A stretch of DNA of 55,033 nucleotides from NCBI GenBank assembly GCA_049292975.1, contig JBATRZ010000062.1, forward strand, positions 1 to 55,033, written 5' to 3'. The notes beneath the pieces are model-generated. The model made no database searches. It was not told the origin of the DNA and saw only the letters and a program-made list of their open reading frames with translations. Position numbers and translations under genes: made by a program. This DNA is from Candidatus Saccharimonadales bacterium (GTDB lineage Bacteria; Patescibacteriota; Saccharimonadia; Saccharimonadales; JACDBH01). Each line of letters begins with the position of its first letter. Position 1 is the first letter of the stretch. Positions 3,312 through 25,499 of the stretch are shown piece after piece.

Positions 3312-3386
3312 TGGAGAGGGGAGTATCCCCTCTCCACGTGCCGGGCACTGGCATAGCCAGATGCTCGGACTGCTCTCCCCTAGCCC
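3312..3386. repeat. Structured repeat, copy A (variable hairpin plus conserved hairpin plus ACTGCTCT tail)
   Basis: TGGAGAGGGGA-GTA-TCCCCTCTCCA, then CGTG-CCGGGCA-CTGGC-ATA-GCCAG-A-TGCTCGG-ACTGCTCTCCCCTAGCCC. Confidence 0.8.
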
Positions 3387-4297
3387 AGAAGCTTCAACAA
3401 GTAGAAGCGTTCGCGGTTGCCCTTGGCGCCCGCTACTTCGCTGTCGGCTTTGTCTATGATAATAAAGTACTGGTTTAGCCAGGTTTCGAAGTCTTTTAGG
3501 ATGGCACGGCGTATCTTGTCGTTCTTAATGACGCCCTTGTGCAGCGACCTACGCGCCTCACGGACTTGTCGAGCGGCAGAGCCACTCGCCCTGCCCGTGC
3601 TTTTGGCGCCGAGAGCCGTTTTTCCTCTGTGGTACTCGGGCAAAGTATCATCAATACTCCCCCCTCCGTTCCTCGAGGAAAAAACGGCTTCGGCATCCAA
3701 ACGCGAAGGTCGTTGAAGCTCAGCAATGATTTCGAACTGCGGCTTGCACATAGCGGCTATTTGCGTGTTAGGACCAGAGATTTTAGCCACATACGGCAGG
3801 ATTTCCCGCAATGATATGAAGCTTACATCCATCACAATTATGTCCGGCCGCTCACCCACCCCACCCTCTTTGTGAGAGGACAGTCCTCTCACATAATCGC
3901 GGATGTCGGTCTGCTCGTGCAATTCGATCTGCGGGTGGCCCACAAGTGTTGGGTGCAGCTGGTTGGTACCTACGTCTACTGCGATGACTTTTGCGGCACC
4001 GTTTTTTAGCGCAAAGTCGGTAAAACCGCCGGTGCTGCTGCCAACATCTAGCACTATTTTATCCTTGAATTGCAGCTTCAGCACGCGGGCGACACTGGCC
4101 AGCTTAAGCCCTGCCCGGCTGACATATTGGACTTTGGCAATAAGCCTGATGTCTGCGTCTTCAGAGACAATTGTACCTGGCTTGGTAAGGATGGTACCGT
4201 TTACGCGTACCTGACCGAGCTTGATAAAGCTTTCGGCCTGGCTACGCGTAGGCACCAACCCTGCCTCAGTCATGAGCTGGTCTAGGCGCTTCTTCAT
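3380..4297 (-). CDS. tlyA: TlyA-family rRNA 2'-O-methyltransferase carrying two in-frame insertions
   Basis: An S4 domain (RLDQLMTEAGLVPTRSQAESFIKLGQVRVNG), the SAM motif VLDVGSSTGGFTDF, DVSFISL and KPQFE are present. The protein is about 50 aa longer than typical TlyA. Confidence 0.85.
   Translation of the reverse strand: MKKRLDQLMTEAGLVPTRSQAESFIKLGQVRVNGTILTKPGTIVSEDADIRLIAKVQYVSRAGLKLASVARVLKLQFKDKIVLDVGSSTGGFTDFALKNGAAKVIAVDVGTNQLHPTLVGHPQIELHEQTDIRDYVRGLSSHKEGGVGERPDIIVMDVSFISLREILPYVAKISGPNTQIAAMCKPQFEIIAELQRPSRLDAEAVFSSRNGGGSIDDTLPEYHRGKTALGAKSTGRASGSAARQVREARRSLHKGVIKNDKIRRAILKDFETWLNQYFIIIDKADSEVAGAKGNRERFYLLKLLG
3546..3711. repeat. Roughly 166-bp nested imperfect palindrome, in frame in tlyA
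   Basis: Three arm pairs nest inside each other. 3608-3627 (GCCGAGAGCCGTTTTTCCTC) pairs with 3675-3694 (GAGGAAAAAACGGCTTCGGC). 3602-3606 pairs with 3697-3701. 3546-3555 (GACCTACGCG) pairs with 3702-3711 (CGCGAAGGTC). Confidence 0.7.
3872..3892. repeat. 21-nt perfect palindrome GTGAGAGGAC-A-GTCCTCTCAC, in frame in tlyA
   Basis: Read directly from the sequence. 10-nt arms with a single central base. Encodes VRGLSSH. Confidence 0.95.
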
Positions 4298-5273: not shown

Positions 5274-5606
5274 CTATTGTAGTCTCTCTTTTATGTGTTC
5301 GGCCAGTGCGCTCAGGTGCGCCACATCCGCCGGACCGAGTAAATCGTATTGGCTGGCTATCAGTATTTGCTCGTTTAACAGATGTGACTGCTCTACTGCC
5401 GCGTCCAGGAACATTTGTTGTTCGGCCGAATCATCGGCATGAAAATACCGTTCGGTATTGATGCGTAAATTGTAGGCACTTTCCTGCACAGCTATCATAG
5501 CCTTGCGCGGTTCGCTGGATAGCGTATTGAATTGCTTTGCCGCCGGCAGGGTCATGATGTACTTTTCGAGCTTTCTCGCCACCTGTGGCAGCGTCAGATC
5601 TTCCAT
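5274..5606 (-). CDS. Hypothetical protein (110 aa, predicted helical)
   Basis: ATG-started ORF lying 4 nt upstream of the next gene. No motif recognised. Confidence 0.45.
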   Translation of the reverse strand: MEDLTLPQVARKLEKYIMTLPAAKQFNTLSSEPRKAMIAVQESAYNLRINTERYFHADDSAEQQMFLDAAVEQSHLLNEQILIASQYDLLGPADVAHLSALAEHIKERLQ

Positions 5607-5621
5607 AAAGAGATTATTGAA

Positions 5622-5644
5622 TACAGATTACTGATTAGAGAATC
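5622..5644. repeat. Left inverted-repeat arm bracketing four-helix-bundle gene 1
   Basis: TACAGATTACTGATTAGAGAATC matches the reverse complement of 6016-6038 at 18 of 23 positions. It overlaps the stop codon. Confidence 0.6.
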
Positions 5645-6018
5645 TGCTTCACCCTCCTGTTCTGCTTATTAGCTTTTTGTAATCCTGCAAGTATTCTTTG
5701 TGCCTCATCAATTTGAAGCAATGTTTTTACACTTAGCTCTTCGCTTATGTAGCCAATGCCTTTTGCGATCAGGTACTGGCACTCGAGTTCTGTCAGAGAA
5801 CCTTTTGCTATCGCATAGAACTGATCTTTTTCCTTTGGACCAAATCTACCAAAACCTTCTGCAATATTTGAGCAAACAGACACCGCTGCTCTACGCATTT
5901 GACTTACCAAGCCGAATAACTCAGATTTTGGAAATTCTTTCGTTATCTCGTAAGTAAGTAGCGAAATTTCATAGGTCTTTTGCCATACGACCAAGTCTTT
6001 AAAGTTAGCTGCAGCCAT
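5635..6018 (-). CDS. Four helix bundle protein (23S rRNA intervening-sequence protein family)
   Basis: FKDLVVWQKTYEISLLTYEITKEFPKSELFGLVSQMRRAAVSVCSNIAEGFGR...AKGSLTELECQ is the hallmark of the PF05635/TIGR02436 family. GC content is lower than in the flanks. Confidence 0.85.
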   Translation of the reverse strand: MAAANFKDLVVWQKTYEISLLTYEITKEFPKSELFGLVSQMRRAAVSVCSNIAEGFGRFGPKEKDQFYAIAKGSLTELECQYLIAKGIGYISEELSVKTLLQIDEAQRILAGLQKANKQNRRVKQIL

Positions 6019-6038
6019 TCTGTAATCTCAAATCTGTA
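6016..6038. repeat. Right inverted-repeat arm bracketing four-helix-bundle gene 1
   Basis: CATTCTGTAATCTCAAATCTGTA is built from CTGTAAT/CTCAAAT heptamer words. It overlaps the start codon. Confidence 0.6.
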
Positions 6039-6052
6039 ATCTAGCTTCTTTA

Positions 6053-6256
6053 CTAGCTGTTAGCCACAAAAGGCATCAGGGCAAGGTGGCGGGCACGCTT
6101 GATAGCGCGGGCCAGCTGGCGCTGCTGTGACTCGGCCAGGCCCGTCTTCTTGCGGGTTTCGATCTGGCCAAACTGATTAACGTAGCGCTGCAAGGTCTTG
6201 AAGTCCTTGTAGTCAAAATATGCTACATCTGTACGGTGTTTAAATATTTTAGCCAT
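6053..6256 (-). CDS. rpsR: 30S ribosomal protein S18
   Basis: ...DYKDFKTLQRYVNQFGQIETRKKTGLAESQQRQLARAIKRARHLALMPF is the bS18 signature. Confidence 0.9.
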   Translation of the reverse strand: MAKIFKHRTDVAYFDYKDFKTLQRYVNQFGQIETRKKTGLAESQQRQLARAIKRARHLALMPFVANS

Positions 6257-6266
6257 AAATTTACGC

Positions 6267-6349
6267 GGGGCTTATGAGAAAACCTAGGTTTTCTCATCGT
6301 GCCGGGCAGCGGCAAAGCCGCATGCTCGGACTGCTCTTTCCTAAGCCCC
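6267..6349. repeat. Structured repeat, copy B
   Basis: GGGGCTTA / ATGAGAAAACC-TA-GGTTTTCTCAT / CGTG-CCGGGCA-GCGGC-AAA-GCCGC-A-TGCTCGG-ACTGCTCTTTCC-TAAGCCCC. The upper stem differs from copy A by compensatory changes. Confidence 0.8.
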
Positions 6350-6410
6350 TCTCCTTTCTAAAGTTTGCTTATTAATGTAAATGGGTTTTAGGCAATTTTG
6401 GCTAGTGCAG

Positions 6411-6489
6411 CTGGGAGTCAAGGCCGAGCACAAAGTTTGAGCCGTATTGAACATACGGTGAAAACTTTTGACGCAGGCCTTGGCCCCAG
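6411..6489. other. 79-nt extended hairpin in the ssb-rpsR spacer
   Basis: CTGGGAGTCAAGGCC..CAAAGTTT..CCGTAT-TGAAC-ATACGG..AAACTTTTG..GGCCTTGGCCCCAG, with symmetric internal loops. Confidence 0.6.
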
Positions 6490-6508
6490 ATGTGCAGCCT
6501 AAAATTGA

Positions 6509-6976
6509 CTAAAACGGGATGTCGTCGAGGTTGATGGGTTCATCGCCGATGTCTTCTATGACCACGTCGTCGGCTTGCTTCTTGCTTGGGCTTGGGCGGC
6601 TGCTGCCGCCATCGCTGGAGCCGCCGCCTTCATTACCGTCGCGGCCGCCCAGGAATGTTACGTCAGTAGCGTTTACCTCGAGCTTGCTGCGCTTTTGGCC
6701 GGTAGTCTTGTCTTCCCAGCTGCTGGATTGCAGGCGGCCGTTTACCAGACACGGGCGGCCTTTGCTCAGGTACTGGGCTACCCGTTCGCCCAGCGGGCCC
6801 CAGGCAACCACGTCTACGTAATCGGTCACCTCTTGCCAGTTACCATCGGCGCCCTTGTAGCTGCGGTTCAGCGCAAGGCTGAAACTGCAAACGGATTGGC
6901 CGCTGGGTATTGTCCTAAGTTCTGGGTCGCGGGTTAGGTTACCCATTAAAATTACTTGGTTAAAACTACGTGCCAT
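6509..6976 (-). CDS. ssb: Single-stranded DNA-binding protein
   Basis: OB-fold N-terminus MARSFNQVILMGNLTRDPELR, a Gly/Ser-rich linker and an acidic tip ending DDIPF. An AAGGAGG Shine-Dalgarno sequence lies upstream. Confidence 0.95.
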   Translation of the reverse strand: MARSFNQVILMGNLTRDPELRTIPSGQSVCSFSLALNRSYKGADGNWQEVTDYVDVVAWGPLGERVAQYLSKGRPCLVNGRLQSSSWEDKTTGQKRSKLEVNATDVTFLGGRDGNEGGGSSDGGSSRPSPSKKQADDVVIEDIGDEPINLDDIPF

Positions 6977-7059
6977 ATGGCATCCTCCTTCTTAAAGGAA
7001 CTATGTCCTCACAATTTATTTGTACTATTTAAGGTACGCTCTTGGCCAGCTTAGTGCAA

Positions 7060-7176
7060 GCCAGAAATTTCACAGTTTTCATTTGGCATTTTACAATAAT
7101 TTTTCATTTTACATCTGTTATTGGAGTCATTTGTGAAATGTGAATTGTGAAATTAATGAAAATTGTAAATTGTTAC
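7060..7176. repeat. Gene-less inverted-repeat module of the TGTGAAA word family, downstream of rpsF
   Basis: The left part carries AAATTTCACAG...CATTTTACA...TTTTCATTTTACAT. The right part carries TTTGTGAAATGTGAATTGTGAAATTAATGAAAATTGTAAATTG. It shares the 15-mer TGTGAATTGTGAAAT and the 9-mer TGTAAATTG with 25459-25500. Confidence 0.75.
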
Positions 7177-7190
7177 GGGCTAATTGTTAA

Positions 7191-7571
7191 TTACTCTTCG
7201 TCTTTAGGTTCGTCGTCGGCTTTGTCGCCGCGCTCGGCGGCTTTGGCAGCCTTCTCGGCCCTGGCGGCTTCGGCCTTGGCTTGCTTCTTTAGATCGGGGC
7301 GGACAATCAAGAAACGTACAACCTCGTCAGTGATGTTAAGGGTGTCGTTAATCTTTTGTATGCCCTGGCCGTCCATCTCAACCGTGTAGAACACGTAAAT
7401 AGCAAATTCCTGCTTATTGATCGGGTATGCCAGCTTGCGCTTGCCCCAGTTATCGGTAGCGGTGACCTTACCGCCATTCGCGGCAATGATAGCCTCTACC
7501 TTGCCGCTTGCCTTCTCAAGGTCAATCTCAAGACCCTGATCAAACAATACAGCAATTTCGTATTGTGCCAT
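7191..7571 (-). CDS. rpsF: 30S ribosomal protein S6
   Basis: MAQYEIAVLF...WGKRKLAYPINKQEFAIYVFY is the bS6 signature, followed by an acidic/Lys-rich tail. Gene order rpsF-ssb-rpsR. Confidence 0.9.
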   Translation of the reverse strand: MAQYEIAVLFDQGLEIDLEKASGKVEAIIAANGGKVTATDNWGKRKLAYPINKQEFAIYVFYTVEMDGQGIQKINDTLNITDEVVRFLIVRPDLKKQAKAEAARAEKAAKAAERGDKADDEPKDEE

Positions 7572-7600
7572 TGTATCCTTTCTTCGAAAGAGAGGGGATT

Positions 7601-7668
7601 AAAGATTAGAGCTTACAGATTTTAGAATTTTCTTCTCTAATCTGTAATCAAAATTCTGTAATCTTACC
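7601..7668. repeat. Gene-less module of the CTGTAAT/GATTAGAG word family, upstream of rpsF
   Basis: AAAGATTAGAGCTTACAGATTTTAGAATTTTCTTCTCTAATCTGTAATCAAAATTCTGTAATCTT shares GATTAGAG, ATCTGTAATC and TCTGTAATCT with the flanks of gene 5635..6018. Confidence 0.75.
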
Positions 7669-7761
7669 GTAACTTCCTATGGCTCATGGTTAGATACCTA
7701 AGAGTTCTAACCTGAAGTTAATTTGTAACAGAGGTAATTGTAGCAGATAACAGATATGCAG

Positions 7762-8583
7762 TCAAGCTGCCCCAAGCAGCTGGCGGCGCAGCGGGCTGAA
7801 GTATTCGGGCCAGCGCTCTTCCGGGAAAACCAGGGTAACTACATCCGCGGCGCAGGGCTTGGCCTTCTTGACTAAGCCTTCTTCAAGCGCCTGGCCGTAC
7901 ACCGGATCTACGGGCTCCACTGCCATCTCTATGGCTTCGCGCAGGATTTTCATACCTAAGCGGCGGCGGCGCTCGGTATTGCCCGATGACAGGAACGCCT
8001 TTATATCCCTCTGGCTTAAGCTTGTTAGGTCTTGCTTCTGAGCATAGGCAGCAAAGAATTTGCCGATATGCCGCGCAGCATAATCTTCGTTACGGTAGCC
8101 GATGGCACGGTTTTGCTTGGTCTCGTAGTGCATCTGCTTGCGGCCGCGTACAAAATCATAGGTCTTGCCCGACATAGCCACCAGCCCTGGATTGCCTGGG
8201 TCGCGTACGTCTAAGGCCTGGCGCGGCATATATCCGGCCACGGCCAGGACGGTAATGGCAAATTTGTCCTGTTCGGTCCGCGGCAAAATATCGGTGCCGC
8301 CAGGATAAGCCTCGTGAAAATTATTGTGCAGCCAGCGGGCAACCGTCAGGCAGCGGCTATAGCGTACGGCCCGGCCCGCATCACCCTGCAGTTCCCGGGC
8401 CTTTTTTTGATAAAACGAATGATGATCATCACTCCAGGTTCTCCGCTCGCCCCTAGGGGCTTCGTACGGGTGGATAGGATACGGCATGCCGTATTCATCG
8501 GTTGGGGCTAGGGCTAGTTCAGGCGGCTCGGGCAGGCGGAGAGGTGCTGGCGTGCCGGTTGGCGCGACAAGCAGCTCGGGCAT
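7762..8583 (-). CDS. Hypothetical protein (about 273 aa)
   Basis: Long ORF. The track start at 8601 is TTG, so the first ATG at 8583 is used here. No confident motif. Confidence 0.5.
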   Translation of the reverse strand: MPELLVAPTGTPAPLRLPEPPELALAPTDEYGMPYPIHPYEAPRGERRTWSDDHHSFYQKKARELQGDAGRAVRYSRCLTVARWLHNNFHEAYPGGTDILPRTEQDKFAITVLAVAGYMPRQALDVRDPGNPGLVAMSGKTYDFVRGRKQMHYETKQNRAIGYRNEDYAARHIGKFFAAYAQKQDLTSLSQRDIKAFLSSGNTERRRRLGMKILREAIEMAVEPVDPVYGQALEEGLVKKAKPCAADVVTLVFPEERWPEYFSPLRRQLLGAA

Positions 8584-24145: not shown

Positions 24146-25060
24146 CTAGATAGTAAGGAGGAAGTGCTGCACGGCGTCGTCGGCGTCTATCATCTCTGAT
24201 TTTAACCGCACGTCCAGCGCCAGTGCCCTGTCTACCAGATCCTTGACCTGTTTTTGCGACAAATTGTGTGTAAGATTGAGGGTTTTGTGCACAACGTATG
24301 GATTGAGCTTGGCGGTGCGGGCTATTTCGTCCGCGCCGTCGCTCTCGTTGAACTTGACCACCGCCAGCACATGCACCTGCCAGGCAATCATGCCCATGAT
24401 GGCCTGCGGCTCTACTGCTTGCTTGCGCTGGTCCTGGTACAGCTCCAGCACGCGCCGCTTGTTGCCCGCGAAGGCGGCATCTATCAGGTCGAACACACTG
24501 CTCCCCGGCAACGGTTCGGTAAGCAGGTCTATGCTGGCCTTCGTAACCTTGTCTTCATACAGCAGCAGCTTGTCCAGCTCGTTACTTAGGCTCATCTGAT
24601 TAGTGCCAAGCCGCGACACCATGTAGCTAGCATCCGTCATTGTCAGGCTGCCGCCGCGCGCCCTGGCCTCGCCTACCAGCCAGGCCGCCAGGCCGCGCTC
24701 GTCAAGCTCAGTGAATTCACGCAGCTCGGCACGCTTCTTGAGCGTCTTATACAGGCCCAGGCGCTTATCGAACTTGCGCTCGTTAATAATAAGATCGGTG
24801 GTATCAGCAACGGCATCCAGCAGCTTGCCGGGGTCATCGGCCAGCGCTTTGTTGGCGGCGGGACTTAAAAGCATTATCATCCGGCGCGGCGCTAAAAAAG
24901 GCAGGCTGGACACGCTCTCTAGCAGGCGGCCGAATTCCACATCACCAGCGTCAATTGTTTCCAGCCCAAAATCGCCATGCTCGGCTACGAAACCAGCCGT
25001 AAGCTTCTTCAGCTCAGCACTGCGGGCAAAATCATTACTGCCGGTTAAAACAAGTATCAT
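24146..25060 (-). CDS. holA: DNA polymerase III subunit delta
   Basis: The N-terminus MILVLTGSNDFARSAELKKL...LESVSSLPFLAPRRMIML and the overall 304-aa helical layout are typical of HolA. Confidence 0.8.
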   Translation of the reverse strand: MILVLTGSNDFARSAELKKLTAGFVAEHGDFGLETIDAGDVEFGRLLESVSSLPFLAPRRMIMLLSPAANKALADDPGKLLDAVADTTDLIINERKFDKRLGLYKTLKKRAELREFTELDERGLAAWLVGEARARGGSLTMTDASYMVSRLGTNQMSLSNELDKLLLYEDKVTKASIDLLTEPLPGSSVFDLIDAAFAGNKRRVLELYQDQRKQAVEPQAIMGMIAWQVHVLAVVKFNESDGADEIARTAKLNPYVVHKTLNLTHNLSQKQVKDLVDRALALDVRLKSEMIDADDAVQHFLLTI

Positions 25061-25064
25061 TTAT

Positions 25065-25087
25065 CAATTCACATTTCACATTTCACA
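25065..25087. repeat. Left inverted-repeat arm bracketing four-helix-bundle gene 2
   Basis: CAATTCACATTTCACATTTCACA is complementary to 25477-25499 at 22 of 23 positions, with a 17-nt perfect core. Confidence 0.9.
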
Positions 25088-25095
25088 TTAATGTA

Positions 25096-25458
25096 TCATT
25101 TGCCATTTTTCAGTGTAGAAATGATTTTCTGCAAGATGAAAAGCAGCTGGCTTACCTCATCTATTTCATTATGACAGGAAAAATTCTCATTGGCTTCCTG
25201 TAGGAGCCTTAGCCAGTAGCGCGTTTCTGCAGCTTCTTTCTTGGCTATGAATATTTTATTTCTAAAATCCAAGCGGGATGCGGCATTGTTTGCCTCTGTA
25301 TAATTGGCCCCGATACCGGTTGCAGAACGGATTAATTGGGTCTTGATGATTCTGTTCTCTGAGGTTTCTGGCAAAGGTTTCACAAGCCGTATGATCTGAA
25401 GCGAGAACTTAATTGTACGCTCCTCTAATTCTTTGGATCTGCCTTGTGAATTGTCCAT
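25096..25458 (-). CDS. Four helix bundle protein (23S rRNA intervening-sequence protein family)
   Basis: ...FSLQIIRLVKPLPETSENRIIKTQLIRSATGIGANYTEANNAASRLDFRNKIFIAKKEAAETRYWL fits the PF05635/TIGR02436 pattern. The gene is low-GC. Confidence 0.85.
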   Translation of the reverse strand: MDNSQGRSKELEERTIKFSLQIIRLVKPLPETSENRIIKTQLIRSATGIGANYTEANNAASRLDFRNKIFIAKKEAAETRYWLRLLQEANENFSCHNEIDEVSQLLFILQKIISTLKNGK

Positions 25459-25476
25459 TGTGAAATTATTGTGAAT

Positions 25477-25499
25477 TGTGAAATGTGAAATGTAAATTG
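25477..25499. repeat. Right inverted-repeat arm bracketing four-helix-bundle gene 2
   Basis: TGTGAAATGTGAAATGTAAATTG, made of heptamer words TGTGAAA. Confidence 0.9.

Follow-up and report, generated by a model that had tools for sequence, protein, structure and literature searches.

The gene rpsF, which encodes ribosomal protein S6, opens a minus-strand rpsF-ssb-rpsR operon in a Candidatus Saccharimonadales genome (862 kb, 62 contigs, 52% GC). The window, meaning the whole stretch of 55,033 nucleotides that was analysed, is contig C62 of this genome. A preliminary description of it gave the spacers of this operon as unusually long, and our measurements return the same values (214 nt for rpsF-ssb and 252 nt for ssb-rpsR). 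It also placed a small inverted repeat lacking a gene on either side of rpsF, and it offered two readings of this pair. They might be MITE-like or footprint derivatives of cassettes carrying a gene for a four-helix-bundle (4HB) protein, or they might be RNA-processing stems that carve rpsF out of the operon transcript. Which of these readings better fits the two repeats is the question addressed here. The features concerned are listed in the order in which the operon is read.

7737..7765, minus strand: promoter-like site of rpsF, TTGACT-17-TACAAT, conserved in relatives
7671..7719, minus strand: rpsF leader with a covarying stem, AACTTC..hairpin..CCAnAGGAAGTT, structured and conserved across the order
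7602..7665, minus strand: upstream module, a gene-less hairpin of GATTACAG / TCTNNAATC words (family 1), matched by a covariance model
7569..7592, minus strand: small SD-containing hairpin and rpsF start codon, CTTTCGAAGAAAGGA, common to the genomes of the family
7191..7571, minus strand: rpsF (PF01250, E = 1.1e-24)
7065..7172, no strand assigned: downstream module, a gene-less hairpin of TGTGAAA/TGTAAAT words (family 2), arms at about 7066-7113 and 7129-7175
6974..7060, minus strand: conserved core of the rpsF-ssb spacer, with a TTGCAC-17-TACCTT promoter-like site, an GGACATAGTTCC hairpin, an SD and the ssb start
6976..6509, minus strand: ssb (Pfam SSB)
6256..6053, minus strand: rpsR (Pfam S18)
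5606..6052, minus strand: cassette 1, directly after rpsR, with a PF05635 4HB gene (6018..5635) and family 1 arms at 5606-5643 and 6018-6052
25059..25499, minus strand: cassette 2, upstream of holA, with a PF05635 gene (25458..25096) and family 2 arms at 25059-25119 and 25438-25499

The two modules at rpsF

The downstream module (108 nt) follows the rpsF stop codon and precedes the conserved promoter-like core of ssb. The upstream module (64 nt) is in the rpsF 5' UTR, flanked by the conserved leader hairpin on one side and the SD hairpin on the other. Both have inverted arms and contain neither an ORF nor a transposase gene. Stop codons interrupt all three sense frames of each, in agreement with the earlier statement that they are ORF-less. 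The downstream module is an imperfect inverted repeat whose best local arm alignment, taken from 7066-7106, matches at 31 of 37 positions, and the inverted arrangement of TGTGAAA words noted previously is thus borne out. The arms of the upstream module align at 22 of 30 positions in their best local alignment and form a central 9-bp stem and a 4-bp stem. This module is matched by the family 1 covariance model at 7604-7664 on the minus strand (63.5 bits, E = 2.4e-10). Two RNA contigs, X30 (7429-7693) and X31 (7572-7722), show that it is transcribed together with the rpsF start, and the contig end at 7722 is near the rpsF promoter-like site. All of the RNA evidence consists of assembled contigs, in which breaks at hairpin edges are indistinguishable from assembly breaks at repeats.

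The words that had been reported as common to the modules and the cassettes are present where described. The 15-mer TGTGAATTGTGAAAT occurs at 7139 and 25470 and nowhere else in the genome, and the 9-mer TGTAAATTG occurs at 7164 and 25491 as well as at 18 other genome sites. On the upstream side, the 10-mer ATCTGTAATC is found at 6032, 7640 and 8 other sites, and the 10-mer TCTGTAATCT at 6019, 6033, 7655 and further sites. The same two word families form the arms of cassettes 1 and 2, and the view that rpsF is flanked by gene-less copies of both stands.

The closest relatives of the modules are other gene-less copies. The downstream module has full-length matches at 67-75% to at least ten other gene-less hairpins, including 110 nt at 74% to C58:4928-5036, compared with a partial match of only 43 nt to cassette 2. 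The best match of the upstream module (72 nt, 76%) is a copy inside the 23S rRNA gene on contig C37. Both modules are degenerate and lack a cassette-type loop, and the rpsF 5' UTR copy, without the ORF-end loop discussed below, is the most degenerate member of its family. Direct derivation of each module from its own cassette was considered and rejected, since the cassette arms give partial, weaker matches than the gene-less copies do. No transposase and no clear target duplication were seen at either module. The two modules themselves are ordinary, degenerate members of an unusual element class.

Other elements surround the modules. The rpsF leader (AACTTC-hairpin-CCAAAGGAAG) exhibits compensatory stem changes across the order (loci L001-L030) and matches no Rfam family; it may be an autoregulatory leader of the S6:S18 type. 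An Rfam search of the whole window at the gathering threshold gave no match, and a search at E <= 10 over 6950-7800 gave only chance miRNA-like matches and no known rpsF leader family. A search for tRNA and tmRNA found none. In the ssb core, which is kept in most relatives (L002-L030), the GGACATAGTTCC hairpin directly precedes the SD. Promoter-like hexamers inside the arrays are not counted as evidence, because a scan gave 4 of them where 2.6 are expected in shuffles.

The ssb-rpsR spacer holds two other strongly folding repeats, at 6255-6350 (z = -4.4) and 6395-6510 (z = -5.1), and the former has another copy at 3331-3382. It is to these repeats, and not to the heptamer families, that the 252-nt spacer owes its length. 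The suggestion that the modules account for the long spacers of this operon consequently holds for the 214-nt spacer and fails for the other.

Heptamer hairpins across the genome and in relatives

There are 12 copies of family 1 (hairpins of GATTACAG words) in the genome by covariance-model search, the rpsF 5' UTR copy included, and approximately 13-15 gene-less loci of family 2 (hairpins of TGTGAAAT words). The arms are built of tandem 7-nt words in which five bases pair and two are variable and usually mismatched. When folded, the result is a series of 5-bp helices split by 2x2 mismatches, which gives the 7-nt period. Clusters of at least three TGTGAAAT-family 8-mers within 120 nt number 13 in the real genome and 0 in 20 shuffles, and pairs of CTGTAATC within 40 nt number 9 and 0, respectively. 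Genome-wide, tandem arrays with a lag of 7 number 76, against 2 after shuffling; no enrichment is seen for periods of 8 or 10-12 nt.

All 12 copies of family 1 are found in loci of the translation or transcription apparatus. They occupy the junctions L13-S9, RpoA-L17, S8-L6, L5-S14, S17-L14, L23-L2, S12-S7 and secE-nusG, and they also occur upstream of L27, in the rpsF 5' UTR and inside the 23S rRNA gene. Eleven of the 12 have the same orientation relative to transcription, and the 23S rRNA copy alone is reversed. Family 2 is not tied to one gene class. The 23S rRNA copy deserves a line of its own.

C37:2332-2413 (locus L081), against transcription: family 1 copy in 23S rRNA, a 95-nt insert in the apical loop of a helix

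This insert falls at approximately positions 2226-2250 of the Rfam LSU model, where the consensus has 2 nt. A LAGLIDADG-type ORF (C37:1518-2021) is located upstream in the same 23S rRNA gene. As a separate observation, many hairpins of both families carry a GC-rich palindromic apex, GCAGC..GCTGC / GCTGCAGC, with examples in the family 2 loops at C9:16790-16815, C58:52690-52715 and C58:30290-30315. Translated from one strand, this apex reads (M/V)(A/T)AAAKLR.., and it recalls the way the cassette 1 protein begins (MAAA).

Related genomes indicate that the two modules are not shared parts of the operon. The preliminary description had proposed a comparison of spacer lengths, and lengths of 28 to 569 nt were found for the rpsF-ssb spacer in 30 related genomes. 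The ssb core, consisting of roughly 85 nt with a TTGAC-17-TAnnnT site, the GGACATAGTTCC hairpin and an SD, is present in about 20 of these 30 spacers. The core alone makes up the spacer, at 78-95 nt, in approximately 15 of the 30 loci, compared with 214 nt here. Among them is the sister species of the same genus (G001), whose spacer has 93 nt and no hairpin. In six other loci (L002, L004, L005, L010, L019 and L030) the same spot holds other word families, and the hairpins in other genera are made of AATTGCN, AATTTTC and other words.

The 5' UTR presents a similar picture, behind a promoter and a leader hairpin that are both kept across the order. In distant relatives the rpsF leader runs straight into the SD, whereas genomes of this family have a slot of 60-90 nt after the leader. 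The slot contains a GATTACAG hairpin in three genera (this genome, G005 and G013) and hairpins of TATCTAT, GATA or AGTG type in other genomes, including the sister species.

Filled and empty sites are also clear in the ribosomal protein operons. The RpoA-L17 spacer is 102 nt here and 1-2 nt in the sister species, G014 and G005. The L13-S9 spacer is 103 nt here, whereas the two genes overlap as TAATG in relatives. Likewise, S3-L16 is 154 nt compared with 1-2 nt, and S11-S4 is 129 nt compared with 3 nt. Between L2 and S9 this genome has 26 heptamer arrays, which belong to at least five word families, and the same three relatives have none. The stretch is the following.

C58:41700-57600 (loci L036, L040, L043, L046, L048, L050): array-filled ribosomal protein operon

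The sister species has no family 1 copy and no PF05635 gene. Outside this species, family 1 is missing from the genus and reaches 1-3 copies in four other genera. Empty alleles were sought in four sludge or wastewater metagenome DNA runs and none were seen for the species. Its contigs in these runs carry the rpsF modules and two ribosomal protein hairpins unchanged, and the single contig that skips the RpoA-L17 hairpin belongs to a divergent relative. Since the elements are constant in four independent metagenomes, these copies are fixed, and no instance of movement was seen.

Copies at operon junctions have a further property. Eight of the nine family 1 copies at such sites are open mini-ORFs, and so are several copies from other families. 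Their ATG overlaps the upstream stop codon, and their stop either overlaps the following start codon or abuts it, as in TAATG[99 nt]TAATG; the peptides are of the kind MTDYRIQITDYRM..AAILKSQISNL.SAT.GSL. The differences in loop length (at least four copies) are multiples of 3. The layout TAATG[insert]TAATG, which may be a target-site duplication, is seen at L13-S9, L24-L5 and S17-L14, and S12-S7 reads TAGCATG[insert]TAATG; selection for coupled stop and start codons could also account for this pattern. In the operon at C58:41700-57600, the arrays fill junctions that in three relatives have 1-5 nt or overlap as TAATG. Most of these arrays are open from the upstream stop to the downstream start, forming 'relay' cistrons, and the C-terminus of L23 may be extended through one of them. 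Neither rpsF module forms such a mini-ORF, and stops in all frames are as expected for copies in untranslated regions.

Cassettes, inserts and competing explanations

There are nine PF05635 genes in the genome, and every one of them is bracketed by inverted heptamer arrays with a word of its own (GATTACA, TGTGAAA, AAAGTNN, CAAGTNN, AGGGTNN, AGTGGNN, TAGAGNN, TAGATNN and GTGAGNN). When 851 ORFs are ranked by the similarity of their inverted flanks, PF05635 genes are at the top and strongly over-represented. The association of the word families with 4HB genes is therefore genuine; the words themselves, however, are not confined to cassettes 1 and 2.

If the interior of its ORF is left out, cassette 1 aligns end to end with the gene-less copies of family 1. 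The loop motif ..(A/C)TG..GC..GCAGCT-ATTCT.., or in its fuller form ..AGA(A/C)(T/G)G..GC..GCAGCT-ATTCT.., is kept in 7 of 10 copies. For example, the loop of the S17-L14 copy is CAGAATGGCTGCTGCAGCTATTCTC and the corresponding ends in cassette 1 are CAGAATGGCTGCAGCT ... CAGATTCTCTAA, and CAGAATGGCTGCTGCAGCT from a gene-less copy matches CAGAATGGCTGCAGCT. By this alignment, both ends of the 4HB ORF survive in these gene-less loops: at the 5' end the start codon and the first four codons (MAAA), and at the 3' end the last codons (..IL). Such remnants fit an origin of the gene-less copies by internal deletion or, in the reverse direction, the capture of an ORF into the loop.

The site upstream of holA holds a PF05635 cassette in three genera (the window, G005 at L075 and G009 at L074). 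Its arm words differ by genus (TGTGAAAT, GGTGAAAAG and GAAAATTG) and the arms are still mutually inverted, which implies concerted or compensatory change of both arms. Dependence of a gene-less copy on a cognate 4HB gene in its own genome was also considered. This is not supported, since G005 and G013 have a family 1 hairpin and no 4HB gene with family 1 arms was found in them; a cognate gene thus appears unnecessary for persistence.

Taken together, these observations lead us to favour, with a probability of roughly three in four, the reading that both rpsF modules are gene-less, non-autonomous hairpin inserts resembling MITEs and MIRUs, which were acquired in this lineage and are tolerated in its untranslated regions. 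Because the same hairpins enclose 4HB genes, sit in 23S rRNA and have recently invaded ribosomal operons, they look like inserted passengers rather than signals that the operon requires. The element would exist in three forms, namely gene-less, with a PF05635 gene in the loop as in cassettes 1 and 2, and as a 23S rRNA helix insert. On this view the modules entered as insertions in this lineage, and the conserved make-up of the rpsF-ssb-rpsR operon does not include them. The downstream copy would have landed between the rpsF stop and the conserved ssb promoter and leader core, and the upstream copy would fill a 5' UTR slot that sister genera fill with other word families. Perhaps the elements spread by copy-and-paste or conversion from cassette-like parents, in which case the cognate 4HB protein is the obvious candidate for the agent of spread. 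They would persist where they do little harm: in UTRs as untranslated hairpins, and at ribosomal operon junctions with a tight stop/start only in the form of open relay mini-cistrons. The rpsF copies would be structured mRNA spacers at most. One finding sits uneasily with passive insertion: the presence of all 12 family 1 copies in translation or transcription loci could mean function and not mere tolerance.

The proposal of MITE-like derivatives accordingly survives at the level of the family, through the loop remnants and the filled and empty sites, and is not upheld as direct descent of each module from its own cassette or as regards a transposase. The genome lacks a reverse transcriptase, and the elements have no link to any transposase or other mobilising enzyme. 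No autonomous parent that shares their ends and encodes a transposase was found; the gene-bearing relatives encode PF05635 proteins.

The second reading in the preliminary description, in which the hairpins are sites for RNase III or another RNase that separate rpsF from ssb-rpsR, is unlikely in our judgement. It is true that RNase III is encoded (on contig C36), that the homologous intervening sequence (IVS) design in Coxiella 23S rRNA is cut by this enzyme (PMC4990558), and that a family 1 member resides within the 23S rRNA gene. In addition, the 5' UTR module is transcribed and its sense RNA folds better than shuffles (z = -3.4). However, the sense RNA of the downstream module folds at only -18.1 kcal/mol (z = -1.3) and is equalled by 17 of 200 shuffles, whereas its antisense reaches -30.2 kcal/mol (z = -3.1). 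Sense RNA is the weaker folder in 16 of the 19 oriented heptamer hairpins, by a mean of 6 kcal/mol; in these hairpins a G.U of the antisense strand corresponds to an A.C in the sense strand. The stems are moreover interrupted by 2x2 mismatches every 5 bp. In the sister species and in most relatives the modules are missing or have been replaced. A conserved promoter-like core of its own precedes ssb, and the RNA data are contigs that show no ends. The weak downstream fold, the lack of conservation and the separate ssb core together argue against a selected sense-RNA stem, and the idea that such stems carve rpsF out of the transcript is not sustained.

We give somewhat slimmer odds to cis-regulatory arrays, in which the heptamers would be DNA or RNA binding sites for a trans factor such as the cognate 4HB protein and family 1 would mark a 'ribosome regulon'. 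This is suggested by the location of all 12 family 1 copies and of cassette 1 in rRNA, ribosomal protein, secE-nusG or rpoA loci, by the shared orientation of 11 of these 12 copies, and by published proposals that the heptamer arrays of Geobacter, Beggiatoaceae and Nostoc have a regulatory role (PMC2700814, PMC4679880). Against it, family 1 has expanded in this species specifically, the count being 0 within the genus and 1-3 for four other genera. Furthermore, several unrelated word families have invaded the same operon simultaneously, orthologous slots carry different words in different genera, and family 2 is not tied to one gene class.

Finally, chance AT-rich low-complexity sequence, or local slippage products unrelated between loci, is scarcely credible as a source of the hairpins and is refuted, despite the AT-rich spacers and the lack of enrichment of the 7-mer TGTGAAA on its own (80 observed, 92 expected), by word clusters and lag-7 arrays missing from shuffles (76 versus 2), by the loop alignment, by full-length similarity between copies with loops included, and by the covariance-model match (E = 2.4e-10).

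Beyond the favoured reading of inserted hairpins, we put forward a broader proposal only tentatively, as one that may well not hold. PF05635 cassettes, gene-less heptamer hairpins and rRNA IVSs could be three states of one mobile system, wherein the gene-less state derives by internal deletion that spares both ends of the ORF and the 4HB protein is the trans-acting factor that recognises its cognate word array. Such a system would colonise transcribed, highly expressed DNA, namely rRNA helices, UTRs and ribosomal operon junctions. The key to it would be this genome, because the GATTACAG family occurs here in all three states.

Comparison with known systems

REP/BIME sequences and their RAYT enzymes resemble the elements described here in being dispersed extragenic palindromes, and Y1 (RAYT-like) genes are present in this genome. 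However, the four such genes carry palindromes of their own, 21-23 nt in length (TGTGAGAGGAC..GTCCTCTCACA and AAGGGTCCGACCCTT), and the heptamer arrays do not match the ends of any Y1 gene. The genes at C30:11790-12710 and C15:900-1730, for example, are accompanied by TGTGAGAGGAC(A/T)GTCCTCTCACA and AAGGGTCCGACCCTT, and the former palindrome also occurs in the window at 3871, 28261 and 45360.

MIRUs and the RPEs of Rickettsia are small palindromic dispersed elements without a transposase, and MIRUs are translatable at stop/start junctions. The sister copies at stop/start junctions here likewise stay translatable. As in MITEs, the elements are small, have inverted ends and no transposase, are dispersed in many copies (12 of family 1 and at least 13 of family 2), and are present or absent at orthologous sites of relatives. 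They differ from all three classes in that the gene-bearing relative encodes a 4HB protein and not a transposase, and in that the arms are heptamer arrays with family-specific words.

Inverted and tandem heptamer arrays have been described for Xanthomonas and Nostoc (GGGNATC; PMC4692102), for Geobacter metallireducens (PMC2700814) and for Beggiatoaceae, where TAACTGA heptamers also occur within ribosomal protein operons (PMC4679880). The arrays in this genome are similarly composed of tandem 7-nt words, often as convergent pairs, between co-oriented genes, and are transcribed; some arrays, here as there, are enriched near translation genes. In contrast, the words here are AT-rich and unable to form G-quadruplexes, and there are filled and empty sites and remnants of ORF ends. 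The passages searched in these papers mention neither PF05635 genes nor intervening sequences or rRNA inserts.

The IVS in helix 45 of Coxiella burnetii 23S rRNA carries an S23p/PF05635 ORF and is excised by RNase III (PMC4990558). The same gene family occupies the loop of a long stem in this genome, an RNase III gene is present, and a gene-less family 1 copy sits inside a 23S rRNA helix loop. The rpsF modules themselves are not inserted in a 23S rRNA helix, a position that belongs to their sister copy. Unlike the IVS, both modules are ORF-less, lie in mRNA UTRs and have stems interrupted every 5 bp. A long stem enclosing an optional PF05635 ORF is nevertheless common to both, since all nine PF05635 genes have inverted arms and the modules represent the ORF-less form.

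For annotation, these comparisons explain a long spacer such as the 214 nt between rpsF and ssb, and they counsel caution before such hairpins are called conserved regulatory RNAs; essential, tightly coupled operons can evidently absorb such inserts. The function of PF05635, the origin of rRNA IVSs and the meaning of the heptamer arrays known from several phyla are unexplained, and the literature searched handles them separately. What this genome adds is one word family in three states, as the arms of a 4HB gene, as a 23S rRNA insert, and as gene-less hairpins in ribosomal operons and the rpsF 5' UTR. It also adds the remnants of ORF ends in gene-less loops and clean filled and empty sites relative to a sister species, which turn a vague resemblance among these systems into a testable relationship of parent and derivative.
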